Source of the DNA: a virus
Lineage: Duplodnaviria > Caudoviricetes
DNA length: 24,076 nucleotides
IMG/VR virus record: IMGVR_UViG_3300032295_001488
Span: 1 to 24,076 of that record
Direction: 5' to 3' (one strand)
Below are positions 1-20,875 of the stretch, piece after piece; the first letter of the stretch is position 1; every line of letters begins with the position of its first letter. The notes under the pieces were generated by a model. The model ran no database searches. It was not told where the DNA came from and saw nothing but the letters and a program-made list of their open reading frames with translations. Both the position numbers and the translations under genes were made by a program.

Positions 1-558
1 ATCAACGATGTTGGTCAGCAAGTTGCCGACATCATTCGTGATGAGATGGAATACGAGAATATGTTGGAGATCGTCGTAAAAGGTAAGAAAGGGCAGAAGG
101 TTGGCGTTGCCTACGGTGGAGCAAAGACATACAACGGCGTGAAGATGAGCAGCCAAACCAAGAAGATCGGTTGTATCGCCCTCAAGGAGATGGTCGAGGG
201 AGACAAGTTGATACTCAACGACTTCGACCTCATCTCCGAAATCAGCACATTCGTCGCCAAGGCTCAGTCCTATGAGGCAAGTTCGGGATACCACGATGAC
301 TTGGTATCGACCTTGGTCATGTTCGGATGGCTGACCACGCAGCCGTACTACAAGGAATTGGTCAATATTGATGTCCGTAGGCGACTCTATGAGGAGAAAC
401 TAAGGAAAATCGAAGAGGATCTCACTCCATTCGGTTATGTGGATTTTGGTGATGAGGCTGACGAAGCGGAGCGGCTATTGGCGCAGGAATCAGCAGAAAA
501 CAAGAAACAGGGTCGGCGGGATCGGTCGTGGATGTCCGATGCCGACGAGATACTCTGA
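1..558 (+). CDS. gp17: Terminase large subunit, C-terminal nuclease part (5' truncated by window)
   Basis: Frame is open from base 1 (INDVGQQVADIIRDEMEYENML). Carries T4-like gp17 motifs ISEISTF and GYHDDLVSTLVMFGW, and lies directly upstream of the tail sheath gene. Confidence 0.93.
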   Translation: MNDVGQQVADIIRDEMEYENMLEIVVKGKKGQKVGVAYGGAKTYNGVKMSSQTKKIGCIALKEMVEGDKLILNDFDLISEISTFVAKAQSYEASSGYHDDLVSTLVMFGWLTTQPYYKELVNIDVRRRLYEEKLRKIEEDLTPFGYVDFGDEADEAERLLAQESAENKKQGRRDRSWMSDADEIL

Positions 559-570
559 AATAACGAAGGG

Positions 571-578
571 TATAAATA
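571..578 (+). promoter_or_regulatory. T4-type late promoter TATAAATA
   Basis: Exact consensus in the gp17-gp18 intergenic region; an AAGGAG RBS follows. Confidence 0.85.
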
Positions 579-622
579 CCCTCCGACTACCCAAAGTCTA
601 AGAAACCAAGGAGACTACTCAG

Positions 623-2395
623 ATGGCATTCCAACTCTCTCCGGGCGTGAATGTTACGGAAAAGGACCTGACCACAATCGTTCCTGCCGTGGCGACTACG
701 AACGCAGCCTTTGCAGGACTATTCGCATGGGGCCCTGTTGACAAGCGTGTCCTGATCGATAGCGAGAACAACCTCGCTAGACTGTTCGGACTTCCCAACA
801 AGGACAACTTTGCATATTGGTTCACCGCAGCCAACTTCCTCCAGTACGGAAACAATCTTCAGGTTGTTCGCTGCTTGAAGGAGACCACCTCGGCAAAGAA
901 TGCGACCCCTGGCAGCCTCACTTCCGTTCTCATCAAGAACGATGACTATTTCACCGCTGCGGGTGCGACCCTGAACGGCCCCTTCATTGCCCGTTATCCA
1001 GGTGCTCTTGGAAACTCGCTGTCGGTCGAGGTCTGCGGAAGCAAGACTCCAGGATCGGGCTTCAATACTTGGGCATACGCCGATGAATTCGACGGAGTTC
1101 CGAAGTCGAGTGCCTATGCTGAGTCATTGGGTGGTACCGCAGACGAGTTCCACCTTGTGGTCGTGGATAGTTCGGGTCTGTGGACGGGTGCTTCGGGCAC
1201 GGTTCTTGAGCGGTTCTCCAACCTCTCGCTTGCCGAAGACGCACAGGACTTCAGCGGAATCTCGACCTACTATGTGCAGAAGGTCAACGATACCTCACGG
1301 TACATCTTCTGCCCGACCCCTGCTGTTTCGAATGGCTATCTCTCGCTCACGGGCGGTGCCGCTAGCGCAACTCCGTTCTCGACATTCTTGTTCAAGGGTG
1401 CTACGGCATCGGACAATGTGTCGTTCACGAATGCTCGGTATGTACTCTCAGGTGGTGTTGATGAGGCTACGCCGACTACAGCACAGAACTACAAGGACAT
1501 TGCTTTCGGTGGAACAGGCAACGGTTTCCGTGCCTATACCGATCCTGAGAGCACGGATGTCAACCTGCTTCTCGCTGGCCCTGAGTTCTGCCCAACGAAT
1601 ACCTCGGTCAGCGACTCGGTTGCAAAAACCCTCAAGGACATTGCAGATGCTCGCAAGGACTGCGTTGTGTTCTGCTCGGCACCGATCAACAATCCGCAGC
1701 GTACCGAAGATGACAAGTTGGCGATTGCCAAGGCATACCGCAACGACATCGGTTCATCTTCGTATGTCTTCATCGACAGCGGCTACAAGTACATGTACGA
1801 CATCTACAACGACAAGTATCGTTGGGTGCCGCTGAACGGCGACATTGCGGGTCTCTGCGCCCGTAGCGATGCCAACACGGATCCGTGGTACAGCCCCGCA
1901 GGATTCAACCGTGGCAGCATCAAGGGTGTCGTGAAGTTGGCTTTCAACCCGACTCAGACATACCGTGATGAGTTGTACAAGAACAACATCAACCCTGTCG
2001 TGACATTCCCTGGTGAGGGAACGATCCTCTACGGCGACAAGACCGCACAGGCGAAGCCGTCTGCGTTCGACCGCCTCAATGTGCGCCGTCTGTTCATCGT
2101 CCTTGAGAAGGCAATCGCAACCGCTGCGAAGTACAGCCTTTTCGAGTTCAACGATTCGTTCACACGGGCACAGTTCCGTTCGCTCGTTGAGCCGTTCCTC
2201 CGTGATGTTCAGGCTCGTCGTGGCATCATCGACTTCAAGGTCGTGTGCGACGAGAAGAACAACACGCCTGAAGTCATCGATAGCAACCGCTTCGTGGCTG
2301 ACATCTACATCAAGCCTGCTCGTAGCATCAACTTCATCCAACTGAACTTCGTTGCTACGAGAACGGGTGTGTCGTTCAGCGAGGTTGGAGCCTGA
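623..2395 (+). CDS. gp18: Contractile tail sheath protein
   Basis: Starts MAFQLSPGVNVTEKDLT; contains PWYSPAGFNRG and FDRLNVRRLF; ends YIKPARSINFIQLNFVATRTGVSFSEV. Confidence 0.97.
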   Translation: MAFQLSPGVNVTEKDLTTIVPAVATTNAAFAGLFAWGPVDKRVLIDSENNLARLFGLPNKDNFAYWFTAANFLQYGNNLQVVRCLKETTSAKNATPGSLTSVLIKNDDYFTAAGATLNGPFIARYPGALGNSLSVEVCGSKTPGSGFNTWAYADEFDGVPKSSAYAESLGGTADEFHLVVVDSSGLWTGASGTVLERFSNLSLAEDAQDFSGISTYYVQKVNDTSRYIFCPTPAVSNGYLSLTGGAASATPFSTFLFKGATASDNVSFTNARYVLSGGVDEATPTTAQNYKDIAFGGTGNGFRAYTDPESTDVNLLLAGPEFCPTNTSVSDSVAKTLKDIADARKDCVVFCSAPINNPQRTEDDKLAIAKAYRNDIGSSSYVFIDSGYKYMYDIYNDKYRWVPLNGDIAGLCARSDANTDPWYSPAGFNRGSIKGVVKLAFNPTQTYRDELYKNNINPVVTFPGEGTILYGDKTAQAKPSAFDRLNVRRLFIVLEKAIATAAKYSLFEFNDSFTRAQFRSLVEPFLRDVQARRGIIDFKVVCDEKNNTPEVIDSNRFVADIYIKPARSINFIQLNFVATRTGVSFSEVGA

Positions 2396-2404
2396 TTAGC
2401 AGCC

Positions 2405-2412
2405 TCTAAATA
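2405..2412 (+). promoter_or_regulatory. Late promoter (TCTAAATA)
   Basis: TAAATA core just upstream of the AAGGAG RBS of gp19. Confidence 0.75.
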
Positions 2413-2431
2413 GAACAAGGAGTCACACCAC

Positions 2432-3058
2432 ATGTCACAGTTCAGCATTGACGCATTCAGAGCAAACCTCGTTAACGGCGTTGCCCGCAACAACCTCTTC
2501 CTCGTTCAGGGTAACTTCCCGAACGCAGGATTGGGTGCGGTCAACTTCGCAGCAGGAGTTGCAGGAGCATTCCTCGGTGCTGCTGCCGCTGGCGCAATCA
2601 ACGCCGTGGCAGGAGCGGTTGGTGCGGGTAGCCCCAACAATCAAGTTGCCTTCCTCGCAAAGGCGGCTTCGATTCCGAACAGCGTATTGAACATCGGCAC
2701 CGCCAACTACATGGGCCGTCAGTTCAAGTATCCTGCCGACCGAACCTTCAACGATTGGAACATCACCGTCTACAACGATGGTGCATATACCCTTCGCAAG
2801 GCGTTCGAACAATGGCAGAACACCATGAACACCAACAAGACAAACATCGGCCCGAATGCCATGAACACATTCATGACCGATTGGTATGTCTCACCGTTGA
2901 CCCGTGAAGGTAATGTCATCACGACATACAAGTTTGTCGGCTGCTGGCCCTCGACCTTGGGCGAAATCGCCCTCGACATGGGTCAGCAATCTGAGCCGTC
3001 GAACTTCAGCGTGACGATGACCTATCAGTATTACGAGATTGCAAATATCACAACCTGA
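2432..3058 (+). CDS. gp19: Tail tube protein with an Ala/Gly-rich insertion
   Basis: Motifs ARNNLF, YMGRQFKYPADRTFNDWNITVYND, YKFVGCWPS and FSVTMTYQYYE; located between sheath and portal. Confidence 0.93.
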   Translation: MSQFSIDAFRANLVNGVARNNLFLVQGNFPNAGLGAVNFAAGVAGAFLGAAAAGAINAVAGAVGAGSPNNQVAFLAKAASIPNSVLNIGTANYMGRQFKYPADRTFNDWNITVYNDGAYTLRKAFEQWQNTMNTNKTNIGPNAMNTFMTDWYVSPLTREGNVITTYKFVGCWPSTLGEIALDMGQQSEPSNFSVTMTYQYYEIANITT

Positions 3059-3115
3059 TAGAAACATTCTCAAGGAACGCTCTCCCCAGAGTCACAATAG
3101 GAGCGAAGATTCGTA

Positions 3116-4618
3116 ATGGCAGAACTATTTGGCTTCAAACTAGAGCGTACCAAGAAGCAGAAGGAAAACTTCAAGGCACTTAAGTCATTCGTGGTTCCGA
3201 TCACGGATGACGGTGCCATTCCTGTTGAGGCAGGAGGCTTCTACGGTCAATATGTCGATCTTGACGGAACGGTACGCAACGATTTCGAATTGATCATGAA
3301 GTATCGTGAGATGGCGATGGATCCGATCACGGAGATCGCTGTTGACGATATTGTGAATGAAGCAATCGTTCTTGGTGAAAAGAAGGCACCCGTCAAGATC
3401 ATCCTTGACCGCCTGAAGCAACCCGACAGCATCAAAGAGAAGATCCACGAAGAGTTCAGAAACATTCTTCGGGTTCTTCAATTTGAGACCAAGGGCTCCG
3501 ACATCTTCCGTCGTTGGTATGTGGACAGCAGAATCTACTTCCACATCATCATCGATGAGGAGAATCCTCAGAAGGGAATCCTTGAGTGCCGTTATGTCGA
3601 TCCGATGAACATCACGAAGATTCGTGAGTTCAAGAAGGAGACCCTCAAGGACGGAACCAAGGTCATTGCGGGGTATCACGACTTCTATGTCTACAACAAG
3701 GACAACCCCCGTCAGGGCGGAAATGTCAGCGGAACCAAGATCAGCGACGATGCAATCGCATTCTGCTCGTCGGGATTGATGGACAGCCGCTACAAGCGTG
3801 TCGTTGGATTCCTCCACAAGGCAATCAAGCCGCTGAACCAACTCCGCATGCTTGAGGATGCCGTAGTCATCTACCGCATCAGCCGTGCACCTGAGAGACG
3901 AATCTTCTACATCGATGTCGGTAACTTGCCCAAGACAAAGGCTGAAGCCTATGTCAAGGGACTTATGAATCAATACCGAAACCGTCTTGTGTATGACGCA
4001 AACACAGGGGACATTCGGGATGATCGCAAGTTCATGTCGATGCTTGAGGACTATTGGCTTCCTCGCCGTGAAGGTAGCCGTGGTACGGAAATCACGACAT
4101 TGCAGGGTGGAGCAAACCTCGGTGAACTCACCGATGTGATTTACTTCCAAAAGAAACTCTATCGTGCCCTCTCGGTTCCTGTCAGCCGTTTGGAGCAGGA
4201 CAAGCAGTTTGTGCTCGGTCGATCTACGGAGATCACCCGTGATGAGGTGCGATTCACCAAGTTCATTCACAGACTCAGAACTCGCTTCTCGGAGTTGTTC
4301 TTCGACCTCCTGAAGAAGCAGTTGGTGCTGAAGAAGATCATCACTCAGGATGATTGGCCTGACATGCGAGAGTCGATGTACTTCGATTTCGTCAAGGACA
4401 ACCTGTTCACGGAACTCAAGAACAGCGAGGTTCGCCGTGGTCAAATCGAAGAATTGGGCAATATCAAACCATACATAGGTAAGTACTATTCTCACGAATG
4501 GATACGGCGCAACATCCTTGGTCAGTCTGAAGCGGATATTCGGGATATGGATCGGCAGATTGAGAAGGAGCGCAATTTGGGCAAGATCGAAGCCGATACT
4601 TCTCAGTTCGGTCTATAA
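3116..4618 (+). CDS. gp20: Portal vertex protein
   Basis: Motifs LHKAIKPLNQLRMLEDAVVIYRISRAPERRIFYIDVGNLPK and MLEDYWLPRREGSRGTEITTL. Confidence 0.97.
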   Translation: MAELFGFKLERTKKQKENFKALKSFVVPITDDGAIPVEAGGFYGQYVDLDGTVRNDFELIMKYREMAMDPITEIAVDDIVNEAIVLGEKKAPVKIILDRLKQPDSIKEKIHEEFRNILRVLQFETKGSDIFRRWYVDSRIYFHIIIDEENPQKGILECRYVDPMNITKIREFKKETLKDGTKVIAGYHDFYVYNKDNPRQGGNVSGTKISDDAIAFCSSGLMDSRYKRVVGFLHKAIKPLNQLRMLEDAVVIYRISRAPERRIFYIDVGNLPKTKAEAYVKGLMNQYRNRLVYDANTGDIRDDRKFMSMLEDYWLPRREGSRGTEITTLQGGANLGELTDVIYFQKKLYRALSVPVSRLEQDKQFVLGRSTEITRDEVRFTKFIHRLRTRFSELFFDLLKKQLVLKKIITQDDWPDMRESMYFDFVKDNLFTELKNSEVRRGQIEELGNIKPYIGKYYSHEWIRRNILGQSEADIRDMDRQIEKERNLGKIEADTSQFGL

Positions 4619-4627
4619 GGGATATCG

Positions 4628-5311
4628 ATGGACGAACAGACACAAGACATTCTCCAGTCCGTTGTCGAGACCCTTCTCAAGAAGGAGGCTACGAAATTCC
4701 GTGGTCTCGTTCAGAAGGAATTGGCTGCAAAGGTGCATGCCAAAATCGAGGAATTGAAGAAGGCTTTGTCTGGTCAAGCCATCAGCGATTCTCCAACCAC
4801 AGTCAAGGAGGTCGGAGGTGCTATGTCACCATCGGCACCACCCACAACTGTTCCGAACAACGATATGGGCGCACCCTCCCCTGCGCCTGTCAAGCCCCTG
4901 AAGCCGAAGGACATCAAGATTGTCCCAACCGCTGCGGGTGCCAACAAGGACGATGTCTCTCTCGACCCAAACTTTGAGAAGGAATTCTTCGTGACTTCCT
5001 ACAACTACAAGGGTCAGAATGTGATCGTCAAGCAAGTGGGAACAGGCTTCGGAAAGCCTGTTCGCATTTATATCAATGATCGCCGTTGGGAATTCTTCCC
5101 AGGTCCGAAGACCGCTGAGAAAGCGACGAAGTCATACATCGATTCGATGATGAGCGATGCGAAGAAGGATCCTGAACTTGCACGAAGCATGACCGACAAG
5201 GTCAATACAGATAAAAAGCAGGGTGTTGCGGCTGCACCTCCACAAGCAGATGCTGCCAAGGAACCCCCTGCTGCCGCAGGAAAACCCCCATTCAAAGCAA
5301 AGAAGAAGTAA
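4628..5311 (+). CDS. Hypothetical head-region protein (prohead core/internal protein position)
   Basis: AAGG RBS; sits between gp20 and gp21, where T4 has gp67/gp68; helical N-terminus and Pro-rich linkers. Confidence 0.6.
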   Translation: MDEQTQDILQSVVETLLKKEATKFRGLVQKELAAKVHAKIEELKKALSGQAISDSPTTVKEVGGAMSPSAPPTTVPNNDMGAPSPAPVKPLKPKDIKIVPTAAGANKDDVSLDPNFEKEFFVTSYNYKGQNVIVKQVGTGFGKPVRIYINDRRWEFFPGPKTAEKATKSYIDSMMSDAKKDPELARSMTDKVNTDKKQGVAAAPPQADAAKEPPAAAGKPPFKAKKK

Positions 5312-5314
5312 GCA

Positions 5315-6301
5315 ATGAAGACTATTGCAAAATTTCATGTCATGGGTATGTCGAGTGTGGAGTTTAAGTTTGATCCATCCAACCCCAAAGAGGTCGTGTC
5401 TGTCTTTGGAACTGAGACTCGCAAGATACCGACGAAGTCTGTCTTGGAGTGGATTCGCACATACAAGCACATCGACAACATGCCACGGGGTGAATATGGC
5501 ACAGATAAAGTGCACTATGCGGTTGATGATGACGGCGGTTACCAATACACATTCTTCATTGGATCGTATTGGAGTAAGTTGTTCTTCAATCGCCAACAGA
5601 TTCCTGCACTTAAGGGGCAGCGAAAGATGGGAAGCATTAGCATACAGCCCATTTTCCCAAGTCTCTACAGTTACAAGGATTGGCTGAAATCAATAGAATC
5701 GCAACTTCGTATGCGAGAAGGAATTGAGGATGCTCACGATGGCGTTGACATTCACGAAGAAATCGGTGTCGATGCCCGAACAAGCATGTTCAGACGAACC
5801 TTGACTCGTTTGGAGCAAGCCCGTGCTAAACGGGAAAGCAAAACCGATAAGTACATGGGAATGTACGACGATGGCAGCGGCAAGGGTGTGGTTATGCCAA
5901 AACCAATCACATTCAACAAGGAAAGCAGGAGATTCACCGTGGAAATCGACGGACGCACAAAAGGACTTCGTGAAGCGATGAAGCGGGTCGAGATGTACCG
6001 CAAGTTGCGTGAGGAAAAGAAGAAGAAGACCCTCATGAGTTCATGGAAGGAATCGGTCGAGGAGACCGAATCCGTGATTCTTGAGGGAGCATCGCTCACC
6101 AAGGGTCAGATCATGGATGCCGTTGGTATGCAAGGCGGCAAGTTCGAAGTGAGCGAAGAGGAACTTTCTCCGAAGCAGAAGGCTTACCGTGCATTCTTCG
6201 CCAAGGCTCTGAAGAAGTTCGGCAAGGACTCCCCTGCATCGATGGATGATGGTGAGAAGAAGAAGTTCTTCGACTACCTAAAGGCGAATTGGAAGGGCTG
6301 A
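5315..6301 (+). CDS. Putative internal head/prohead core protein
   Basis: Lys/Glu-rich with an internal D-[AG]-R-T repeat, several (I/L/V/M)-x-E candidate gp21 cleavage sites, and a motif shared with gp22. Confidence 0.6.
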   Translation: MKTIAKFHVMGMSSVEFKFDPSNPKEVVSVFGTETRKIPTKSVLEWIRTYKHIDNMPRGEYGTDKVHYAVDDDGGYQYTFFIGSYWSKLFFNRQQIPALKGQRKMGSISIQPIFPSLYSYKDWLKSIESQLRMREGIEDAHDGVDIHEEIGVDARTSMFRRTLTRLEQARAKRESKTDKYMGMYDDGSGKGVVMPKPITFNKESRRFTVEIDGRTKGLREAMKRVEMYRKLREEKKKKTLMSSWKESVEETESVILEGASLTKGQIMDAVGMQGGKFEVSEEELSPKQKAYRAFFAKALKKFGKDSPASMDDGEKKKFFDYLKANWKG

Positions 6302-6732
6302 TGCCGACACTCAAGGTCAACTTCAAGACACCCGCAAAGGCATCGGAGTTCGCAAAGAACTTCGGTGTCGTTGGTGTCAAGGCGACCGTGAAGGTGGACG
6401 GTTCCTCCGTTTCCATCATGTCGAAAGACACCAAGACGCATGATTTCGTAAAGCAGATGGTGGGCGATCTTAAGGGCGAGACGAAGATGGAGTCAACGAT
6501 GTCATCGTTCCTCCTTTCCGTCATCGGCTCCGCAAACAACGAGGCGATTGTGGAGACAAAACTCTACGACGATTCGGTTGTGACGATTGATCCCGAATTT
6601 GCAAGAAACTTCATCAGAATTCATGACAGCCTAAGCAGCGAAGATGGGCAATCCATGCTTCGTGCACTCGCTGTCGAAAGCGTGGACTCATTCAACAAGA
6701 CGAAGGAGTTCGTCGCAGAGGAGCAGGAGTAA
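6301..6732 (+). CDS. Hypothetical head-region protein
   Basis: ATG at 6301 overlaps the previous stop (TGATG); protein starts MPTLKVNF; codon usage matches neighbours. Confidence 0.7.
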   Translation: MPTLKVNFKTPAKASEFAKNFGVVGVKATVKVDGSSVSIMSKDTKTHDFVKQMVGDLKGETKMESTMSSFLLSVIGSANNEAIVETKLYDDSVVTIDPEFARNFIRIHDSLSSEDGQSMLRALAVESVDSFNKTKEFVAEEQE

Positions 6733-6735
6733 ACC

Positions 6736-7161
6736 ATGGCATCAAGACAAGACTTGGTCAAGACACAGAAGAGAGCCGTAGTTAAGTTGGGCTTCAACAA
6801 CGAGAGTGCTGCATACAACCTCGGCGTGACTGGCTCGCTTTTTGATCCGATTGGCGGAACCACAGGCGAAGCATTTGTGAGAGGAATCACAAACAACACC
6901 GCAGCGTTGTCAAGAATCATTTGGACTGCTAGCACGGGTGGATACAACCTCACATGGGCGGGTACTGCGGGTGCAACTGCATTCATGGCATACGGAACCG
7001 ATGGTGTTGTCGATTTTGAGCGCATGACCATGATTAATAATGCAACTACTCCAACAGGCATTTTGACAATCACTCCAACGACAGCACTCACAGGCACCCT
7101 GATTCTTGAGGTTGTCCAAAATTCGGGATCGGTAACCCCACCTGGCTACTTCAGCCTCTAA
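6736..7161 (+). CDS. Hypothetical virion protein (Gly/Thr-rich, beta-like)
   Basis: AGGAG RBS; immediately upstream of gp21 in the head operon. Confidence 0.65.
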   Translation: MASRQDLVKTQKRAVVKLGFNNESAAYNLGVTGSLFDPIGGTTGEAFVRGITNNTAALSRIIWTASTGGYNLTWAGTAGATAFMAYGTDGVVDFERMTMINNATTPTGILTITPTTALTGTLILEVVQNSGSVTPPGYFSL

Positions 7162-7170
7162 GGAATCCCC

Positions 7171-7818
7171 ATGAAACTCATCACAGAAGTAAACGAAGGC
7201 ATCGAAATCATTACGGAAGCCGCCGCAAACGGTGAGAAGAAGTACACCATCGAAGGAACCTTCCTTCAGGGTGACATCACCAACCGCAACAAGCGCAAGT
7301 ATCCGTTTGAGATGCTCAAGACGAAGGTCAACGAGTACATCAAAGAATTTGTCGATCAGAAGAGAGCGTTCGGTGAGTTGGGTCACCCTGAGGGGCCAAC
7401 CATCAACCTTGAGCGTGTCTCGCACATGATCACGGAACTCCACGCCGATGGAAAGAATTTCTACGGCAAGGCAAAGATCATGGACACCCCATACGGAAAG
7501 ATCGTAAAGAATCTTATCGATGAGGGTGCCAAGTTGGGCGTGTCGAGCCGTGGTATCGGTTCAATCGAAGAGAAGAACGGCGTGAATGTCGTAAAGGACG
7601 ATTTCCGCCTATCGACCGCTGCCGACATCGTGGCAGACCCGTCTGCACCTGATGCCTTTGTCCGTGGGGTCATGGAAGGCAAGGAGTGGGTCTATGAGAA
7701 CGGCATTCTGAAGGAAAAGGAAATTGAGGAGATTCGCCGCCAAATCAGCAGAGCATCCGCTCGCAAGTTGGATGAGGCTTGTTTGTCGGCATTCCAACGC
7801 TTCATTTCGAAACTTTGA
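7171..7818 (+). CDS. gp21: Prohead core protease
   Basis: Motifs MKLITE, GELGHPEGPTINLERVSH, LGVSSRGIGS and ADIVADPSAPDAFV. Confidence 0.97.
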   Translation: MKLITEVNEGIEIITEAAANGEKKYTIEGTFLQGDITNRNKRKYPFEMLKTKVNEYIKEFVDQKRAFGELGHPEGPTINLERVSHMITELHADGKNFYGKAKIMDTPYGKIVKNLIDEGAKLGVSSRGIGSIEEKNGVNVVKDDFRLSTAADIVADPSAPDAFVRGVMEGKEWVYENGILKEKEIEEIRRQISRASARKLDEACLSAFQRFISKL

Positions 7819-7823
7819 CCCCG

Positions 7824-7831
7824 CATAAATA
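7824..7831 (+). promoter_or_regulatory. Late promoter (CATAAATA)
   Basis: One mismatch to consensus; precedes the AAGGAG RBS of gp22. Confidence 0.8.
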
Positions 7832-7852
7832 ACCCTTACGAAGGAGAAATCC

Positions 7853-8938
7853 ATGGACTCATTCCACAACGAAGAAATCGAAGAGATCCTTGATGAGGTT
7901 GCTGAGGAAACAGCAGACCTCACCGAAGAGGATTCGAAGACCGCACAGAAGACCAACCTGACGAAGGTTGGAAAGAAGACTCATCCTCCGATCAAGGAGG
8001 AGGAAGAAGAAGAGGAAGAGGAAGAAGAGATCGCTGCCAACGCATCCAAGAGAGGTGCAGGCAAGAACAAATATGCGGGTCTCTACAAGGACGGCACAGG
8101 CAAGGGCGCAATCGTTCCTGAGCCCGTTGCCACCGACACCTCGGATTCTGCTTCGAAACTCGCCGCAAGCGTGAAGGCAAAGAAGGCAATGCGTGAGGAG
8201 ATCGACACCCACATGAACGCAATGTTCGATGGTGAGTCGCTCTCTGAGGACTTCAAGTCGAAGGCTGCAACCATCTTCGAATCTGCTCTCAATGAGCGGG
8301 TTGAGTCGGTTCGTAGCGAACTCCAAGAGGAGTATTCGAACCGTCTTGTCGATGAAGTCGATGAGATCAAGAAGGGTCTCACCGAACAACTCGACTCGTA
8401 CCTCTCGTATGTTGTCGAGGAGTGGATGGAAGAGAACCGTCTCGTTGTCGAGAAGGGCATCCGCACGGAGATCGCTGAGGAGTTCATGCAGGGTCTTCGC
8501 AACCTGTTCCTTGAGCACGACATCGCTGTTCCTGAGACCAAGGTTGACTTGGCTGATCAGTTGGCAGAGACCGTCGAGTCTCTCAAGGGTCAGTTGAACG
8601 AGGAGATGAACAAGAACATCGAACTCAAGAGCGAGGTCGCCAACTATCGCAAGGCATCGATTCTTGAGGAGGCTGCTTCGGATCTTGCCGACACTCAGAA
8701 GGAGCGTTTCGCCGTTCTCGCTGAGGGTCTCGCCTTCGACAGCGAGGACGATCTTCGCAAGAAGGCACAGATCATCAAGGAGTCCTACTTCAGCAGCAAG
8801 AAGCCCGTCCTCAAGGAGGAGGCACTTGCAACCGCAGAGGAAGCCCCGATTGATGAAGTTTCGGGAACCCTAAGCGAGACTCTCTCTGAGTCGATGTCTG
8901 TCTACGCACAAACCCTCTCACGGCTCAATCGCCGTTGA
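7853..8938 (+). CDS. gp22: Prohead core scaffolding protein
   Basis: Motifs LSEDFKSKAATIFESA, YLSYVVEEWMEEN and IKESYF; acidic N-terminus with an 11-Glu run (7997-8029). Confidence 0.95.
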   Translation: MDSFHNEEIEEILDEVAEETADLTEEDSKTAQKTNLTKVGKKTHPPIKEEEEEEEEEEEIAANASKRGAGKNKYAGLYKDGTGKGAIVPEPVATDTSDSASKLAASVKAKKAMREEIDTHMNAMFDGESLSEDFKSKAATIFESALNERVESVRSELQEEYSNRLVDEVDEIKKGLTEQLDSYLSYVVEEWMEENRLVVEKGIRTEIAEEFMQGLRNLFLEHDIAVPETKVDLADQLAETVESLKGQLNEEMNKNIELKSEVANYRKASILEEAASDLADTQKERFAVLAEGLAFDSEDDLRKKAQIIKESYFSSKKPVLKEEALATAEEAPIDEVSGTLSETLSESMSVYAQTLSRLNRR

Positions 8939-8954
8939 CCAAACTGTTCGATTC

Positions 8955-8962
8955 GCTAAATA
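8955..8962 (+). promoter_or_regulatory. Late promoter (GCTAAATA)
   Basis: TAAATA core upstream of the AAGGAG RBS of the major capsid gene. Confidence 0.75.
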
Positions 8963-8999
8963 GAAACTGTACGAAAGTACTCAAAAGGAGAAACCACAA

Positions 9000-10379
9000 A
9001 TGGATCTGACCATTTCAGAAGCACTTCAGAAGAAGTGGAAGCCCATCTTGGAGCACCCTGAACTCCCTGAGATCAAGGACTCTTACAAGAAGGCCGTCAC
9101 AACCATGCTGCTCGAAAATCAAGAGCAGCACCTCAAGGAGTCGGCACCGACTAACTTCTCATCGAACCTCGACGGCCCGTCGAATTCGAATGTGAGCCGT
9201 TGGGATCCGATCCTCATCTCGCTCGTTCGTCGTGCAATGCCGAACCTGATCGCCTATGACATCTGCGGCGTTCAGCCGATGAGCGGTCCTACGGGACTTA
9301 TCTTCGCAATGCGTAGCCGCTACATCAATCAGACTGGCCCTGAGGCTCTGTATCAGGAAGCCGATGCTGGCTTCGGTGGCTCGGGTTCGACGGGTACGAC
9401 CGCCAACGGCGTGTACGACACCTCGACCTTCGGTGCCAACTCGACGGGTGTTGATCCGTTTGAGACTTCAAACGGCCCGACCATTCCTGGTGCGGGTCGC
9501 ACGACCAACGCCAACGGTGGCTACGGTTACAGCACTCTCTCGGGTGAAGCCCTCGGTGACTCGGTCAACAATCCGTTCCCGCAGATGGCATTCAGCATTG
9601 AGAAGACCACGGTCGAAGCAAAGACCCGTGCTCTGAAGGCTGAGTACACGATGGAACTCGCTCAGGATCTCAAGGCAATCCACGGCCTCGACGCAGAGAC
9701 CGAACTCGCCAACATCCTGTCGAGCGAAATCCTCGCTGAGATCAACCGTGAGGTTGTTCGTACCCTGTACCAGACCGCCAAGTTGGGTGCCCGTGCAGGA
9801 ACGACTCAGACCGCTGGTGTGTTCGACCTCAATGTCGATTCGAACGGTCGTTGGTCGGTCGAGAAGTTCAAGGGTCTGCTCTACCAGATCGAGCGTGAGT
9901 GCAATCAGATCGCTAAGGAAACCCGCCGTGGCAAGGGCAACTTCGTCCTCTGCTCCGCTGATGTCGCCTCGGCTCTCAGCATGGCAGGCATCCTCGACTA
10001 CGCCCCTGCTCTCTCCACGAACCTCAATGTCGATGACACGGGCAACACCTTTGCGGGTGTCCTCAACGGTCGCCTCCGTGTGTACATCGATCCGTATGCT
10101 TCGATGACCACTTCGCACGACTTCTTCATGGTCGGCTATAAGGGTTCGTCTGCATACGATGCGGGTATGTTCTACTGCCCGTATGTTCCGCTGCAAATGG
10201 TTCGTGCAGTCGGTGAGCAGTCGTTCCAGCCGAAGATCGGCTTCAAGACCCGTTACGGTCTTGTCAACAACCCGTTTGCCACCATCGCTGGTGGTGCATC
10301 GGTCACCGATCCGACCGCAGCGGCTGCAAAGCGTGCTAACTGCTACTACCGCATCGTGAAGGTCACAAACCTCTTCTGA
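9000..10379 (+). CDS. gp23: Major capsid protein
   Basis: Motifs DPILISLVRRAMPNLIAYDICGVQPMSGPTGLIFAMRSRY, KAEYTMELAQDLKAIHGLDAETEL and FQPKIGFKTRYG. Confidence 0.98.
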   Translation: MDLTISEALQKKWKPILEHPELPEIKDSYKKAVTTMLLENQEQHLKESAPTNFSSNLDGPSNSNVSRWDPILISLVRRAMPNLIAYDICGVQPMSGPTGLIFAMRSRYINQTGPEALYQEADAGFGGSGSTGTTANGVYDTSTFGANSTGVDPFETSNGPTIPGAGRTTNANGGYGYSTLSGEALGDSVNNPFPQMAFSIEKTTVEAKTRALKAEYTMELAQDLKAIHGLDAETELANILSSEILAEINREVVRTLYQTAKLGARAGTTQTAGVFDLNVDSNGRWSVEKFKGLLYQIERECNQIAKETRRGKGNFVLCSADVASALSMAGILDYAPALSTNLNVDDTGNTFAGVLNGRLRVYIDPYASMTTSHDFFMVGYKGSSAYDAGMFYCPYVPLQMVRAVGEQSFQPKIGFKTRYGLVNNPFATIAGGASVTDPTAAAAKRANCYYRIVKVTNLF

Positions 10380-13479: not shown

Positions 13480-13945
13480 CTTTGGTCTCCTCGGGAAGTG
13501 CGTCTCGGACGATTCGGTTGACCGCCTCGTTGATCGTGATGTCGTTGTTGTGTGCGTAGATGGCGAGGAACGAAAGCGTCTTCTCGTCTAAGTCGAGCGT
13601 GACTGAGGTATCGTCGTTCTTGGTGTCGATGCTGTCGAACACCATGGCGTACTCCTCGTACTTCAGGGATTCGACAAGCGAGTACAGAAGATCCTCTGCC
13701 GCCAAGAAGCGTCCGATCATCTTTCCCTGTTCCTTCGGATCGGTTTTCTTCAGGGGCGAATCCGAATCGGATTCGATTGCACCAACGAAGTCCTGATGTG
13801 CGTCAGCCAAGGCTTCCGAAGCGATTCGCACATTCTCAATGATCGTGTTCCATGGAGAATGTGGGATCGGATTCTTTGAGAGTTTCTCAAGTGTGTCTCC
13901 GTACTTCTCGTTGATCTCTTTGATGATGGTCTTCAGGTCTTTCAT
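13457..13945 (-). CDS. Hypothetical protein with a possible C-terminal ribbon-helix-helix domain
   Basis: VTLDLDEKTLSFLAIYAHNNDITINEAVNRIVRDAL has the strand-helix-helix pattern; ATGA-coupled to the upstream gene. Confidence 0.6.
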   Translation of the reverse strand: MKDLKTIIKEINEKYGDTLEKLSKNPIPHSPWNTIIENVRIASEALADAHQDFVGAIESDSDSPLKKTDPKEQGKMIGRFLAAEDLLYSLVESLKYEEYAMVFDSIDTKNDDTSVTLDLDEKTLSFLAIYAHNNDITINEAVNRIVRDALPEETKDGTHPEG

Positions 13946-14295
13946 AGGGTCTCGCAGTACTTCTTCAGGGCAATCTCAGCGTCACGGCGAGTGAGGTATG
14001 CCTTGCTTGGGTTGGTTGATGTCTCGTCCCAAAAGATCCACCCTCCGTGACGGGGGCTGTATTCGATGTGATCTCGCTCTCCCGAAGTCCCCAACTTCAT
14101 GTTCACTTCGTGGAGATACTCCGTGTGGCATCGAATCAATTCGTTTGCCTCGTATTCCGCAGGGAAATGCTTCAGAAGCCGCCGTGCCTCTCTCCGAATC
14201 GCAAGGGGAACCTTGGTCTTCTGAGGATCCATCAGCGACAGCAGGAAGTTCTTGGTGTTGACTAGGGCATGATACTGTTCGTATGGAAGAGTCAT
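13942..14295 (-). CDS. BPSL0761-like family protein
   Basis: MTLPYEQYHAL...FLLSLMDP...VPLAIRREARRLLKHFP resembles that family. Start reassigned to 14295, just after the promoter. Confidence 0.65.
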   Translation of the reverse strand: MTLPYEQYHALVNTKNFLLSLMDPQKTKVPLAIRREARRLLKHFPAEYEANELIRCHTEYLHEVNMKLGTSGERDHIEYSPRHGGWIFWDETSTNPSKAYLTRRDAEIALKKYCETL

Positions 14296-14302
14296 TGGGA
14301 TA

Positions 14303-14330
14303 AGTATAGCCTCCAAGATTTCCCTGTCAA
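14303..14330 (-). promoter_or_regulatory. sigma70-type early promoter TTGACA-N16-TATACT
   Basis: -35 at 14325-14330, -10 at 14303-14308; ATG lies 7 nt downstream (leaderless). Confidence 0.75.
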
Positions 14331-14392: not shown

Positions 14393-15811
14393 ATGGCAAA
14401 CTACTATTGGGTTGGTGCTAGCGCATCTGCGGGTATCAGCAGATACGATTACAATACCCCGTCAAATTGGAATACTGTCTATTGGGCTTCCCAAGGAACA
14501 GGTGCAAGTTTCGGTTGGTCTTTCCAACCCGCTACCGCTGCCCCAGGACCTGGTGACAGAATTTTCGTGGGAACATCAAATGTCGGAACGATCCCCACGG
14601 CACTTTCGCCTCTCCTGTTCGGTGGCTACTCAGGAAACTCGGCGTTGGGTGGCTACTCAAATTCGTTGGGTGGTACGGGAACCACGACTACAAGTTCCCT
14701 GAACGCCGCCACGATTGATGTCAGCACGAACAAGTACCCGTTCAACTTCTTCGGCGGCGGTCTCACAGGTGCTGTCTACAGTTGGGCAGTCAACTCGGAT
14801 GGATTGACCACGAACGCATTCGTCGGCGCAACGGGACAGAGAGCAGTCCAACCATTCAAACTTAAGGTTGCACAGAACTACTACATCACGACAAAGTCAT
14901 CGTCCTTGGTCGATATCGTGAATGTGAAGTCCGTCAATGTCGCTGCGGGAACCACATCATCGAACATAGTCACCACAAGCGTGGGAATCTATGGATCTGG
15001 ATATGTAAGATTCAGCGGCGGATCGGTTGCATCGATCAACAACAATGGAAATGGATCGCTCTACCTGTCGGGAATCACTTGCGGTGATTTCTACACGAAT
15101 CCAAGTTCCGTGTATGTCGAGACGGATGCTCGGTTCAGTAATGTCTATGTCGGTGGCGCATACTTGGCTCCGATTTGGTTCGGTGGATCCTTGGACAGCC
15201 AAACCGTCCTCACCGATCTCGGCTTCCAAGGCAGCGTGACAGGTAGCAATGCCGCAGCAAACGACTCAAGCATTGTGATCACCCCCATCAATAATTGGTG
15301 GATCGGTGGTGGTCAGACCACTCAGCCGATCTTCTACTTCGGAACCCCTGGTGTGACTAGCGTAGTCTCCTTCTGCAAGAAGATCGACATCGCATCTTCG
15401 GTCGGCGCATCGGGTGGCCTGTCATCGGGTGGTGCAGCAAACAATGCCAAGTGGAACTTGGTGTTTGCGGGTGGTGCAAGTGCAGCCTCGGTCGAAGCGA
15501 ACGACACCATCGTCAGGGCATATGACTACATCGACCCAACGGTTCTCGTTAGAATCGGAACCTTGGGTATGTCTCGGGACTCGGTGCTGAACTTCGCACA
15601 CGAAGGCCCATTTGACAATTGGTTCTTCGGCTCCGTCACAGGAAACACCATCGTGGGTGGAATCGTATTCCGTGACGAGACTCCGACAATCAAGGGCAGC
15701 GCAGGAGTTCGCTTGTTCAACACGCAAGTTGTCCTCGGCAACAGATTCGATGCTCGTACAGGGAAGACTACAAACACTACACCGACAATAGCAAGCGGCG
15801 ACCCGCTGTAA
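14393..15811 (+). CDS. Gly/Ser/Thr-rich beta-structured protein, probably a virion (fibre/decoration) protein
   Basis: MANYYWVG...SNW N-terminus like beta-helix/adhesin starts; no signal peptide; late promoter; isolated + strand gene. Confidence 0.6.
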   Translation: MANYYWVGASASAGISRYDYNTPSNWNTVYWASQGTGASFGWSFQPATAAPGPGDRIFVGTSNVGTIPTALSPLLFGGYSGNSALGGYSNSLGGTGTTTTSSLNAATIDVSTNKYPFNFFGGGLTGAVYSWAVNSDGLTTNAFVGATGQRAVQPFKLKVAQNYYITTKSSSLVDIVNVKSVNVAAGTTSSNIVTTSVGIYGSGYVRFSGGSVASINNNGNGSLYLSGITCGDFYTNPSSVYVETDARFSNVYVGGAYLAPIWFGGSLDSQTVLTDLGFQGSVTGSNAAANDSSIVITPINNWWIGGGQTTQPIFYFGTPGVTSVVSFCKKIDIASSVGASGGLSSGGAANNAKWNLVFAGGASAASVEANDTIVRAYDYIDPTVLVRIGTLGMSRDSVLNFAHEGPFDNWFFGSVTGNTIVGGIVFRDETPTIKGSAGVRLFNTQVVLGNRFDARTGKTTNTTPTIASGDPL

Positions 15812-15825
15812 AGAAACCAAGTATG

Positions 15826-15864
15826 AAAACGAACAACCCCCGCCGAAGCGGGGGCTGTTCTTTT
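15826..15864 (-). terminator. Intrinsic terminator, possibly bidirectional
   Basis: On the minus strand: GAACAGCCCCCGC-TTCG-GCGGGGGTTGTTC-GTTTT. A T-tract also exists on the + side; the G-U pair favours the minus strand. Confidence 0.85.
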
Positions 15865-15911
15865 GTGACTAGCCTTGGCGAACCTTGGCAAGGGCGAACC
15901 CCTTTCGTCAC
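15826..15911 (-). ncRNA. Putative ~86-nt structured small RNA
   Basis: Consensus-like promoter upstream; GUGAC/GUCAC stem encloses two UUCG hairpins; a UUCG terminator follows; no complete ORF between start site and terminator. Confidence 0.6.
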
Positions 15912-16939
15912 GCATGCACTATACCACCCTGCAACTGTTTTGTCAACGCAGCAAGGTCGCTCTTGTACATAATCTTTGCGAGGAGTCGCATATCAACCTT
16001 GGGCTTCCATCCAAGAATCTTCTTAGCCTTGGAAGGATCCCCAAGCAGGAACGGCACCTCGTTCGGACGGAAGTACTTGGGGTCGATAACCACATGCTTC
16101 TTCCAATCAAGCCCTGCGTCCTCAAAGACGAGTTCTAGGAACTCACGGACGGTGTGGGTCTCCTGCGTGGCTACGACATAATCGTCGCCAACGGGCTGTT
16201 GAAGCATCAACCACATCGCCTCGACATAGTCACCCGCAAATCCCCAATCACGCTTTGCGTCGAGGTTTCCTAGTCGGAGTTCGTGCTGCAATCCCAATTT
16301 GATCCGTGCAGCAGCCATCGTGATCTTGCGAGTCACGAATGTCTCACCTCGGCGTGGGCTTTCGTGATTGAAGAGGATGCCCGACGATGCATGGATGCCG
16401 TATGCGTTTCGATACACACGGGCCATGTGGTGTGCGTGGAGTTTCGCAACGGCATACGGCGAAACGGGCATCATGCGGCTGTTCTCGTTGTAGCCCACCT
16501 CGGGGTCGTAGTCCTTGCTGTCGCCGTACATCTCCGATGAGGACGCTTGATAGAAGCGAGTGTTCGGACTGATGCTGCGGATCGCCTCAAGGATCTTGAG
16601 TGTGCCACCCGCAATACCATCAGATGTGTACTCGGGGATTTCGAAAGAGACCGCAACATGTGACTGCGCTGCCAAGTTGTAGAACTCGTCGGGCTTGTAT
16701 GTTGCGAGGATGTGCGTGATCGCTGCACCGTCGAGCAAGTCGTAGTGATGCAGTTTGAAGAGTTCGTTCTCGTAGAGGTGGTCGATTCGATCAGTATTGA
16801 TTGTCGAGGTTCGACGCTTCAGACCGATGACCTTGTAGCCCTTGGCAACAAGCATATCGGCAAGATAGGAGCCGTCCTGACCATTGACTCCCGTGATGAC
16901 CGCTGTCTTTCCGTTCCACTTATTTGCGAATGCCGTCAT
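15908..16939 (-). CDS. gmd: GDP-mannose 4,6-dehydratase
   Basis: Motifs ITGVNGQDGSYLA, YNLAAQSHV, FYQASSSEMYG, SPYAVAK, FNHESPRRGETFVTRKIT and LGNLDAKRDWG. True start 16939 has an AGGAG RBS. Confidence 0.97.
   Translation of the reverse strand: MTAFANKWNGKTAVITGVNGQDGSYLADMLVAKGYKVIGLKRRTSTINTDRIDHLYENELFKLHHYDLLDGAAITHILATYKPDEFYNLAAQSHVAVSFEIPEYTSDGIAGGTLKILEAIRSISPNTRFYQASSSEMYGDSKDYDPEVGYNENSRMMPVSPYAVAKLHAHHMARVYRNAYGIHASSGILFNHESPRRGETFVTRKITMAAARIKLGLQHELRLGNLDAKRDWGFAGDYVEAMWLMLQQPVGDDYVVATQETHTVREFLELVFEDAGLDWKKHVVIDPKYFRPNEVPFLLGDPSKAKKILGWKPKVDMRLLAKIMYKSDLAALTKQLQGGIVHA
15918..15946 (-). promoter_or_regulatory. sigma70-type promoter TTGACA-N17-TATAGT inside the gmd 3' end
   Basis: -35 at 15941-15946, -10 at 15918-15923. 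Confidence 0.75.
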
Positions 16940-17837
16940 AGTTTCTCCTGATGTAGTCGCATGTTTGCATGATGCCGTCACGAATCGGCGTGAACTTGAA
17001 GTCGGGGTAGTAGTGTGTGAACCGACTGTTGTTCGTAGGTTTGCGGAGTATACCCTCGGGCTTCGTCGTGTCAAACACAATTTCGCCATCGAAGTCGAAG
17101 CACTCGGCAATGATCTCCACGATGCTTCTGATCGAATGCTCCTCGCTCGGAGACACAATCATAAGATTTGGTATATCTCGGGGATCCTCATGGATCATCA
17201 TGATCGCTCGGGCGATGTCGGGAGCGTAGATGAACTCCCGCTCGGCTCGACCGCTACCCCACACATGGAACGGGGTTCCGTCACGCTTGGCGAGGTAGCA
17301 CTTGTGGATCAGGCTAGGAATGACATGACCGCTGTCTAGGTCGTAGTTGTCGTTCTTGCCGTAGATGTTGCACGGGATGATGCACCTTGCTTGGATACCC
17401 GCCGTGCTTAGGGCACGGGCACCGACCTCAAGCATGCGCTTGGCATAGGCGTACCCATAGTTCGTGTAGTGGGGTTCGCCGTGATGGAGCATCCCTTCGT
17501 GCACGGGATACTCGACATCGGATGGAAAGACACAGGTGGAAAGCATGAAGGTTGCTTTCCGAATCTTGTGTTCCTTGCAAGCCCTGACGATGTTTGCGTT
17601 GATCGTGAGGTTCTCGCTGAAGAAGTCGAGAACCTGTTCGTGGTTCGCCTTCACTCCACCGACCTTTGCAGCGAGATGCACGATCTCCGTGACGCTGCGT
17701 CCTCCGATGTAGGAGAACAGTTGCGGATAGTTCAGAAGGTCTAGTTCTCTTCGGGTTGGCTTTTTGCCCCACTCGTCGGAAATCTCCGAACCTATGAGAC
17801 CATGCCCACCCGTTACCAATCTGTTCAAGTTTTTCAT
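16920..17837 (-). CDS. fcl: GDP-L-fucose synthase (GDP-4-keto-6-deoxymannose epimerase/reductase)
   Basis: Motifs VTGGHGLIG, HLAAKVGG, LSTCVFP, NYGYAYAKRM, SGHVIPSLIHK and WGSGRAEREF. Confidence 0.93.
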   Translation of the reverse strand: MKNLNRLVTGGHGLIGSEISDEWGKKPTRRELDLLNYPQLFSYIGGRSVTEIVHLAAKVGGVKANHEQVLDFFSENLTINANIVRACKEHKIRKATFMLSTCVFPSDVEYPVHEGMLHHGEPHYTNYGYAYAKRMLEVGARALSTAGIQARCIIPCNIYGKNDNYDLDSGHVIPSLIHKCYLAKRDGTPFHVWGSGRAEREFIYAPDIARAIMMIHEDPRDIPNLMIVSPSEEHSIRSIVEIIAECFDFDGEIVFDTTKPEGILRKPTNNSRFTHYYPDFKFTPIRDGIMQTCDYIRRNYDGIRK

Positions 17838-19088: not shown

Positions 19089-19850
19089 TTAGCCCCAATT
19101 GTCAAGCAGAATTCCCAAATCGGGGGAATCAACCACTCCGTTGCCGTTCAGGTCGCAGGGGTTTCCCTTGAACGATGCCTGTCCCCATGCTGCGATCAAC
19201 TGCGCCAAGTCTGATGAATTGACCGTGCCGTTGCCATCGATGTCCCCGACTCTCATGTTTCCGATGACAGTCGCATTCGTCAGAACACCTGTGGTCGAGA
19301 GACCTGGGATGTAACTGCCGTAGACGATGGTCTTTTGTTCGGCATTGATATTGATCTCGGGTATGAAATACACATTGCTCTCAGAGAAGGGAGCAAGGAC
19401 TCGGAACCGCAGTTTCACGATCTGCACGGGTTCATCGATGAGCCACACGCTTCCCAACTTTCCATATCCGTAATACAAGGCGTTGCCGTCTGCGGGTGGA
19501 ATCGATTCGTTGATTCCTGTGTAGTCGCCACCGATGCCCTCGCAGTTCTGATACCCAGCGGGGCATGGCATTCCGCTCGGGGGAACCCAAAGAAGCGGAT
19601 GCGAACCGACATGGGAAAGACCGATGAACTGAAGTTCGTTCGGATTCCAACCGAAGACGATGTCCGCAACAAAGTATCGTTGCGGTGTGGTCTGTGCCGA
19701 AGCGATGATCTGTACTTCGATCTCTTCGTCAACGCCCACGGCACTCGTCGGTGCGACCATGGTGAGATCGATCTTCGCATTCGGGTCTGTCTGTGCTTGT
19801 GTGGATGCTGCGATTCCCAACGCAAGCAATATTGCTGTCATGATTCTCAT
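19089..19850 (-). CDS. Secreted protein with a cohesin-like beta-sandwich and a C-terminal dockerin-like domain
   Basis: Signal peptide MRIMTAILLALGIAASTQA. Cohesin-like pattern (VGVDEEIEVQI, ADIVFGWNPNELQF, IVKLRFRVL). Paired Ca-binding repeats GDIDGNGTVNSSDLAQLIAAWG and CDLNGNGVVDSPDLGILLDNWG. Confidence 0.8.
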   Translation of the reverse strand: MRIMTAILLALGIAASTQAQTDPNAKIDLTMVAPTSAVGVDEEIEVQIIASAQTTPQRYFVADIVFGWNPNELQFIGLSHVGSHPLLWVPPSGMPCPAGYQNCEGIGGDYTGINESIPPADGNALYYGYGKLGSVWLIDEPVQIVKLRFRVLAPFSESNVYFIPEININAEQKTIVYGSYIPGLSTTGVLTNATVIGNMRVGDIDGNGTVNSSDLAQLIAAWGQASFKGNPCDLNGNGVVDSPDLGILLDNWG

Positions 19851-20050
19851 GTGTCTCCTCCTTTTGTTTCTGATGCCTTCCACTTTAGAAGTGTCCTGCT
19901 AGCGATATACATGCACCCCAAAGCCGTGCCGCAGACGATGAGGTAACGGCTGTTCTCAGCGTCACCTCTTTGTCCTTCGATCAGCCCGATCAACACGGGT
20001 GCAAGTGCCACCCAAAACTCTGTGGTCTTGGTTCCTGACTTCTGCTCCAT
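19847..20050 (-). CDS. Small two-hydrophobic-segment protein, holin-like
   Basis: KSGTKTTEFW motif, two hydrophobic segments and a charged C-terminus; AGGAGG RBS; late promoter upstream. Confidence 0.55.
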   Translation of the reverse strand: MEQKSGTKTTEFWVALAPVLIGLIEGQRGDAENSRYLIVCGTALGCMYIASRTLLKWKASETKGGDT

Positions 20051-20200: not shown

Positions 20201-20875
20201 TCAGCGGCGGCGGCGACCAATCATTCCCGCCATACCAAGGAGGGCAATCGCACCAGGGGAAGGAGCAGACAATACGAATGCACCTCCTGCGGTATTGCCA
20301 ATGAAGTTCGGGAGTGGTCGCCAATCACCCCAATCATACTGACCGTTATTATCGGTGAACCAAAACCCATCGACATTCTCACCCTGCGACCACACGAACT
20401 GATCTCCCGCCGCATCATTGAGTTGTGCGCCGATGTTCATAAAGTAGTTGCCTGTCGTGATTTGGAATGCCAAAGGAACAACGAACTCATAGACAGGTTG
20501 ACCGAAGAAATTGAAGTCACCCGTTTCACCCCACTTGATGTTCGCCAAGTCGATCTTCTGATTGAACACTTGGGACTCAAAGTTCGAATCCCACACAATG
20601 ATCTGAAAGCAATCGATGTTTGAGATTCCCTGATCGTTGAAGCCGTTCATCGAACCCCACCATCTGAGTGACGATGTGGTGTATGAATCTTCAAGACTGA
20701 ACGCTTGCGCCCCACTCTGAGCGTAGGTATATGCGCCATTTGAATCGAATGCATCTGAGTAGAAGCCAACTGTATCCACAACTGGATTGTTGACCACGAT
20801 GAACTCTGCGTTGACTGCACCACAGATAGAAGCCGCAGCAAGTGCGGTAGCCACACAAGTCTCTCTGACAGACAT
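20201..20875 (-). CDS. Secreted protein with a PEP-CTERM-like C-terminal sorting signal
   Basis: Signal peptide ending GAVNA; C-terminus APSPGAIALLGMAGMIGRRRR (Pro motif, TM segment, Arg cluster); AGGAG RBS. Confidence 0.85.
   Translation of the reverse strand: MSVRETCVATALAAASICGAVNAEFIVVNNPVVDTVGFYSDAFDSNGAYTYAQSGAQAFSLEDSYTTSSLRWWGSMNGFNDQGISNIDCFQIIVWDSNFESQVFNQKIDLANIKWGETGDFNFFGQPVYEFVVPLAFQITTGNYFMNIGAQLNDAAGDQFVWSQGENVDGFWFTDNNGQYDWGDWRPLPNFIGNTAGGAFVLSAPSPGAIALLGMAGMIGRRRR

Follow-up and report, generated by a model that had tools for sequence, protein, structure and literature searches.

A 47-nt three-way RNA junction recurs in three genomic settings across phage contigs and may serve as an operator of homing endonuclease genes and, set free, as a decoy

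We analysed a 24,076-nt stretch of phage DNA (hereafter, the window) that encodes, on its minus strand, a predicted small RNA beginning with a three-way junction. This junction recurs across phage contigs in three genomic settings: behind promoters in T4-like relatives (setting I), behind stop codons in another phage group (setting II) and ahead of homing endonuclease genes (setting III). The conserved unit is the first 47 nt of the RNA, its UUCG loops, AA/AA internal loop and third hairpin being non-defining. In setting III, the loop of the third stem is complementary to the 3′ tail of the same RNA, mostly at the Shine-Dalgarno-like sequence, an anatomy that predicts a translational lock. We tentatively propose that the junction is a fold binding a host factor, which would act as operator in setting III and as decoy in the window.

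The window is a piece of a T4-like phage. From their translations, its genes at 46-10379 were recognised by eye as terminase, sheath, tube, portal, protease, scaffold and capsid, in the order known from T4; the capsid protein shares about 62% identity with its counterparts in Pelagibacter and Methylophilales T4-like phages. The small RNA starts at the end of gmd (GDP-mannose 4,6-dehydratase; 15908..16939, minus strand; TIGR01472 above cut-off), the start of which was taken at the ATG directly ahead of the Pfam domain. Together with fcl, gmd forms a phage-borne pair for GDP-fucose synthesis (15908-17837), and an 11/12 promoter lies within fcl, immediately ahead of gmd (17074-17047). On the other side, a 472-aa gene assigned to no known family in family searches (14393..15811, plus strand) runs convergent to the RNA and separates it from the gene that directly follows the RNA in L002-L004. 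This Gly/Ser/Thr-rich gene (also in L030, L031 and L033) lies reversed, just upstream of a 117-aa gene, in several relatives and is missing from that position in L002-L004. The 117-aa gene (13942..14330, minus strand) served as synteny marker and has its own promoter (14330-14303); its control in cis by the window RNA was ruled out, as the terminator and the convergent gene lie between. A secreted dockerin-domain protein (19089-19883) and a protein with a PEP-CTERM-like tail recognised by eye (20201-20875) are possible clues to the host, and no NCBIfam PEP-CTERM model matched in the window.

The promoter of the RNA consists of a −35 hexamer, TTGACA (15941..15946, minus strand), situated in the last gmd codons and kept in relatives, and an extended −10 element, TG-n-TATAGT (15918..15926, minus strand), at a 17-nt spacing. 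It scores 11/12 and reads exactly as in the earlier note, which had been made from the letters of the window. Three sites of at least 11/12 are present in the window, whereas 60 first-order Markov simulations had 0.18 on average. Canonical spacing predicts transcription to start at G15911, the first base of the closing helix, as had been proposed. The junction (15865..15911, minus strand), delineated by folding and covariation, is composed of P1 (15911-15907/15869-15865), a GAA strand between P1 and P2 (15906-15904), P2 (15903-15890), P3 (15889-15872) and a UA strand leading from P3 to the 3′ side of P1 (15871-15870). A search with a model that includes the window sequence located this one copy in the window. 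Behind it, folding and a promoter/terminator scan revealed a 13-bp hairpin with a U tail resembling an intrinsic terminator (15826..15860, minus strand), which is terminator-like on the plus strand too, for the convergent gene, and has a relative in the L004 end terminator. P1 contains the gmd stop codon TGA (15910-15908), so the 3′ end of a read-through gmd mRNA carries the same fold; P1 pairs with a probability of at least 0.99 in both the short RNA and the read-through mRNA.

The 86-mer folds with −45 kcal/mol (z −5.7; none of 200 shuffles as good) versus −38 kcal/mol for the plus strand, in agreement with the strand favoured earlier. Most of this signal comes from the 13-bp terminator (z −6.2 alone), and the energy of the 47-nt junction is non-significant (z −1.5, matched by 15 of 200 shuffles); it is therefore covariation, not energy, that establishes the junction. 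RNAfold places P2 one register off, and the register originally drawn is the one that covaries (columns 13/19, nine double changes). Of the three UUCG loops, that of the terminator alone is closed by C-G, as in the extra-stable form; the other two close with G-C. The claim that no complete reading frame fits needs qualifying: a 129-aa frame from ATG 15915 passes through the element, but it begins upstream of the predicted +1 and its ATG is missing in relatives such as L009. In metatranscriptome X20, no contig covered 15816-16118 or the setting II locus L062, and such contigs lose short RNAs.

Relatives were collected with exact and degenerate patterns, yielding 3, 10, 11, 18 and 36 viral loci, at least 120 metagenome loci and 12 GTDB loci. 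The pattern used for the 36 viral, the metagenome and the GTDB sets left four of the five P1 pairs and the body of P3 free. Among its unfiltered hits, P1 (three or four of the four free pairs) and a stable P3 were nevertheless found in 27/27 distinct viral and 46/56 metagenome sequences, and in 2/12 from GTDB. For a first alignment (A1, 59 rows), a filter on P1 pairing eliminated 19 of 80 distinct sequences; a further three were removed as chance and one was restored. Owing to this filter, the 152 double changes of A1, compared to 51 in shuffles, lean towards structure. In a second, model-fitted alignment of all settings (A2, 58 rows including one weak match), 95% of the cells were paired and double changes numbered 228 versus 68 in shuffles and at most 57 in slid controls. 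The homologues thus bear out the fold by covariation. P1 and P3 vary freely in sequence yet remain paired, and the base of P2 shows an A-C opposition in 53 rows, G-U in three, the window among them, and G-C in one.

The junction core reads Y-GAARR-GG..CC-YU-G..C-UA-G. Since the search patterns fixed most of its bases, part of the invariance seen in A2 follows from the design; sequences that were retrieved in other ways retain the core with small changes (G6 to A in L008, C5 to U). By contrast, the three UUCG loops and the length of about 86 nt, put forward earlier as the hallmarks of the RNA, did not hold up: the loops vary, several relatives have base pairs throughout in place of the AA/AA loop, the third hairpin amounts to an ordinary terminator and conservation is confined to 47 nt. 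The UUCG and AA/AA loops were accordingly dismissed as recognition features, both varying among relatives. A pattern for the G-U variant with free loops gave 14 loci, four already known and ten without P1 support. In the cellular genomes searched, no convincing junction was found, the 12 GTDB matches mostly lacking the stems and 151 Planctomycetota genomes, with 40 candidates scored per genome, giving a 24.8-bit match in one genome. Against cultured phages, BLAST matched only the terminator end of the element (best 30 of 484 records), and three setting III leaders had no match over the motif.

Setting I comprises 21 T4-like loci, which are close relatives rather than independent cases. A promoter of at least 9/12 precedes the junction in 17 of them, three score 8/12 and one has none; in 12 of the 21, the gap between −10 and P1 measures 6 nt as in the window, P1 beginning at the predicted +1. 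Together with the covarying stems, these promoters uphold the earlier proposal of a discrete promoter-to-terminator RNA with a real three-way junction. The junction stays constant while the sequence 3′ of it changes. It is followed by different terminators in the window and L030, both with intact promoter and no cargo, by a hairpin and a gene in L002 and L003, by a ribosome-binding site in L051, and in L004 by another module and then a terminator related to that of the window, which resembles L004 without its middle part. Many T4-like relatives carry a pistol ribozyme (RF02679) directly 3′ of the junction, above gathering score in 6/8, 1/4, 2/13, 1/20 and 6/15 loci of successive sets and in 0/20 of a further set. 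As the pistol ribozyme is described to cleave near its 3′ end (PMC4604425), it would free a junction-bearing 5′ RNA. It is a neighbour and not the element itself, and none is present in the window. In L026 (531-598), the pistol ribozyme extends to the start codon of the following gene, where cleavage would give an almost leaderless mRNA with a 5′-OH end.

Two further elements were observed in these cassettes. Seven loci (L001, L023, L145, L009, L033, L122, L004) contain a second module some 70-80 nt beyond the pistol ribozyme or small hairpin. It consists of two hairpins with a palindromic hexamer in each loop; the hexamers vary with lineage, and the three different pairs among the seven loci suggest self-kissing loops for dimer formation. 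A third element, located before the end terminator of the cassette (L001, L009, L023, L033), has H-type pseudoknot potential and a common A-rich linker, and no Rfam match was obtained for it in these loci.

Setting II accounts for 91 of 114 distinct contexts, all from other phages with short, separately promoted genes. In 81 of the 91, the stop codon of an open frame lies at most 23 nt upstream of the junction, and most contexts continue into U-rich sequence. The cassette, as seen in L056, L062 and L087, is made up of the stop codon, a small GUGGUG-loop hairpin, the junction, a U tract, a long stem whose inner hairpins vary, short DNA words in repeats and the next promoter, and often precedes a DUF7178 gene. 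In L082, a degenerate second junction copy (1530-1575) lies some 530 nt away from an intact one and shares its flanking cassette. From settings I and II together, 44 downstream proteins were chosen, of which 18 belong to DUF7178 and none to a nuclease family. Ten records from these settings have one or two junction copies each, and a search of five large ones (57-93% complete) with a wider model retrieved no pseudoknot form of the setting III type.

Setting III emerged from a pattern with free loops, which matched 99 viral loci (66 distinct). Thirty with non-standard loops were examined, and six of these, namely two genuinely capped forms and four that lacked stems, were left out before counting. 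The remaining 24 and nine loci from model searches, including eight new paralogs, make up a set of 33. In all 33 selected loci, 5-7 bases of the P3 loop are perfectly complementary to the 3′ tail of the same RNA. Pairing of at least 5 bp occurred in 16% of cross pairs, and none of 10,000 permutations was as good. The complementarity overlaps a Shine-Dalgarno-like run in 30 of the 33 loci and is present in each of the eight paralogs found by the model only; the P2 loop, by comparison, can differ from UUCG, as in a divergent paralog. Among 21 downstream proteins, 19 match endonuclease VII, HNH or GIY-YIG nucleases, one is a replication initiator and one has no match. Pfam alone gave nuclease-type matches for 11 of 22, several below the cut-off. 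The replication-initiator gene preceded by junction and pseudoknot is found in L369 / L329 (G020). Upstream of the junction lie, among others, genes for capsid, portal, small terminase and thymidylate synthase, and two contigs carry six and five junction copies. With a 9/12 promoter-like site at the 5′ edge of only 3 of the 33 loci (60 nt upstream scanned), a position at the transcript start was ruled out for this setting. Several copies begin 5 nt after the upstream stop codon, which suggests plain translational coupling. Setting III relatives thus lie 5′ of a nuclease gene and pair with its ribosome-binding site, as a homing-endonuclease operator would; the window copy is followed by a terminator and its P3 is capped.

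The element was further compared to known RNAs. Likenesses of the junction to xrRNAs, put-type antiterminators, S15 sites and the tRNA T-arm were weighed and not adopted. Covariance models of Rfam 15 gave no match at gathering score in the window, where sub-threshold matches were driven by the terminator, and none over the motif in the homologous loci (sets of 8, 4, 13, 20, 20 and 15). A single sub-threshold match over the motif was to the S15 leader (20.7 bits, E 0.79, L278). ARAGORN detected no tRNA or tmRNA cloverleaf at the element. The earlier note, which recognised in it no tRNA, ribozyme or known riboswitch, is supported to the extent that the element is neither a tRNA nor a member of an Rfam family. 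Type II hammerheads are three-way junctions open at one stem, with GAA after a C-G pair, a loop-tail pseudoknot and a seven-nucleotide catalytic strand between stems I and II. In contrast to these (RF02276), our junction has 2 nt rather than 7 opposite GAA and a G at the would-be cleavage position; the 2-nt UA strand is present in 57/57 rows, where the search pattern fixed it, and in the model-found paralogs. The hammerhead model RF02276 did not match the element, its only match in the window scoring 14.2 bits elsewhere, and was rejected, as was the SAM-III riboswitch (RF01767; no match at E 10). In SAM-III, the Shine-Dalgarno sequence is reported to be built into the junction pocket (10.64898/2026.09.10.749994), unlike setting III, where it pairs with a distal loop.

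Phage decoy RNAs such as pseudo-ToxI and RNA anti-CRISPRs are copies of a protein-binding fold. The window RNA resembles them in being small, promoter-driven and presenting a copy of a putative protein-binding fold, but no copied host RNA was found and the repeated fold is a predicted phage operator. The closest functional parallels are the hairpins sequestering the ribosome-binding site that are reported to control T4 and Aeh1 homing endonucleases (PMC2988022). As described for I-TevI/II/III and segB of T4 and mobE of Aeh1 (PMC2988022, PMC2677866), these structures are, like setting III, placed 5′ of free-standing homing endonucleases, over the Shine-Dalgarno sequence. They are portrayed there as simple hairpins with an internal late promoter that bypasses them, whereas setting III combines a three-way junction and a pseudoknot with a core common to unrelated nucleases, and the window copy has neither nuclease gene nor pseudoknot. 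An unnamed candidate of Fremin et al. 2023, DNAVirus_7989, is listed with 51 nt and 100 sequences from freshwater phages, 59 of them at most 25 bp from Endonuclease_7 genes (PMC10690425). Its entry names no function. Its length, habitat and gene context, compared by description, fit setting III, and the two may be the same family. Six junction core strings were not found in those files of PMC10690425 that were searched, and the literature searches listed no paper that describes the motif.

How might one fold serve all three settings? P2 and P3 would stack, and GAA and UA would lengthen P1 by non-canonical pairs that hold it beside P3, such that the 3′ tail could reach the P3 loop. In setting III, the pseudoknot would cover the Shine-Dalgarno sequence, silencing the nuclease gene for as long as neither a bound factor nor an upstream ribosome alters the structure. 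Settings I and II have a capped loop, which would preclude a switch while the core is still kept; the RNA, ending at a terminator, a pistol ribozyme or the transcript end, would titrate the factor. We take the factor to be the host's, because the nucleases have unrelated folds and the five large setting I/II records hold no setting III copy. The fold is linked to translational control of homing endonucleases, and nothing connects the RNA to the anti-defence or antitoxin-mimic role envisaged in the earlier note. The binding reading has its competitors, even within the proposed mechanism: the core can be explained as architecture alone, which counts against it, the lock could open without any factor by coupling to the upstream stop, and the window copy, also sitting at the 3′ end of gmd, could act there in cis.

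In a first alternative, the junction would be a compact, very stable fold without any partner that blocks ribosomes in setting III and, in settings I and II, protects the ends of RNAs. The copy in the window would then be a 5′ cap and a gmd 3′ structure left after loss of the nuclease gene or downstream modules. The GAA/UA strands, presumably a structural module, speak for such a fold, as do the position of P1 at the predicted +1 in setting I and the closeness of setting II copies to upstream stop codons, many leading into U tracts. Regulatory hairpins can, moreover, outlast the nuclease gene, as reported in PMC2677866. A plain hairpin, however, would serve equally well, the core is kept across phage groups without common neighbouring genes, and in the window and L030 a junction persists with an intact promoter, different terminators and no cargo. 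We regard a fold without partner as a serious contender, albeit a rather unlikely one.

We also consider it unlikely that the junction is a new small self-cleaving ribozyme, whose cleavage would separate the P3 loop from the Shine-Dalgarno sequence in setting III and cut after stops or after +1 in settings I and II. The junction with its loop-tail pseudoknot resembles type II hammerheads; it has a fixed core with free arms, occurs in up to six copies per contig and abuts pistol ribozymes. Self-cleaving ribozymes are also described as clustering together and with phage genes (PMC4604425). On the other hand, the pistol link is limited to one phage lineage, appearing in 1/20 and 0/20 loci of other sets, and P1 starts at +1, leaving nothing 5′ to remove. 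Cutting a cargo-less 86-nt RNA would give no evident product, few invariant bases are unpaired and no ribozyme model matches.

Quite improbable, in our estimate, is an aptamer for a small molecule or ion, functioning as translational riboswitch in setting III and as sponge when free. Its appeal lies in the multi-stem junction with a covarying pseudoknot over the Shine-Dalgarno sequence, a riboswitch architecture of the kind that, according to Weinberg 2017, marks biochemically demanding RNAs (PMC5737381). It is at odds with the lack of association with metabolic genes, the absence of convincing copies from the cellular genomes searched, the negative SAM-III model and the implausibility of an RNA sponge for abundant metabolites. 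Finally, that the element acts as DNA, in a promoter-stem-loop recombination cassette, is most improbable: the setting II cassettes do lie between short, individually promoted genes, but G-U pairs, the asymmetry between strands and the pairing of the loop to the Shine-Dalgarno sequence are hallmarks of RNA, and setting I/II records contain one or two copies each.

Returning to a fold that binds a host factor, a far-reaching and very improbable extension is that the free RNA soaks up the host factor opening the lock, so that the nucleases of a co-infecting rival stay untranslated, making the RNA a weapon in phage-phage competition. If this were true, phages without nuclease cassettes would make a free copy of the lock and thereby spare their own DNA from the nucleases of the rival. 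The window contains the smallest natural form of the element, cargo-free, its 47 nt flanked by a promoter and a terminator. Given that the known phage controls of homing endonucleases are unrelated simple hairpins, a common junction and pseudoknot ahead of endonuclease VII, HNH and GIY-YIG genes would point to a common signal or chemistry timing the expression of selfish nucleases.
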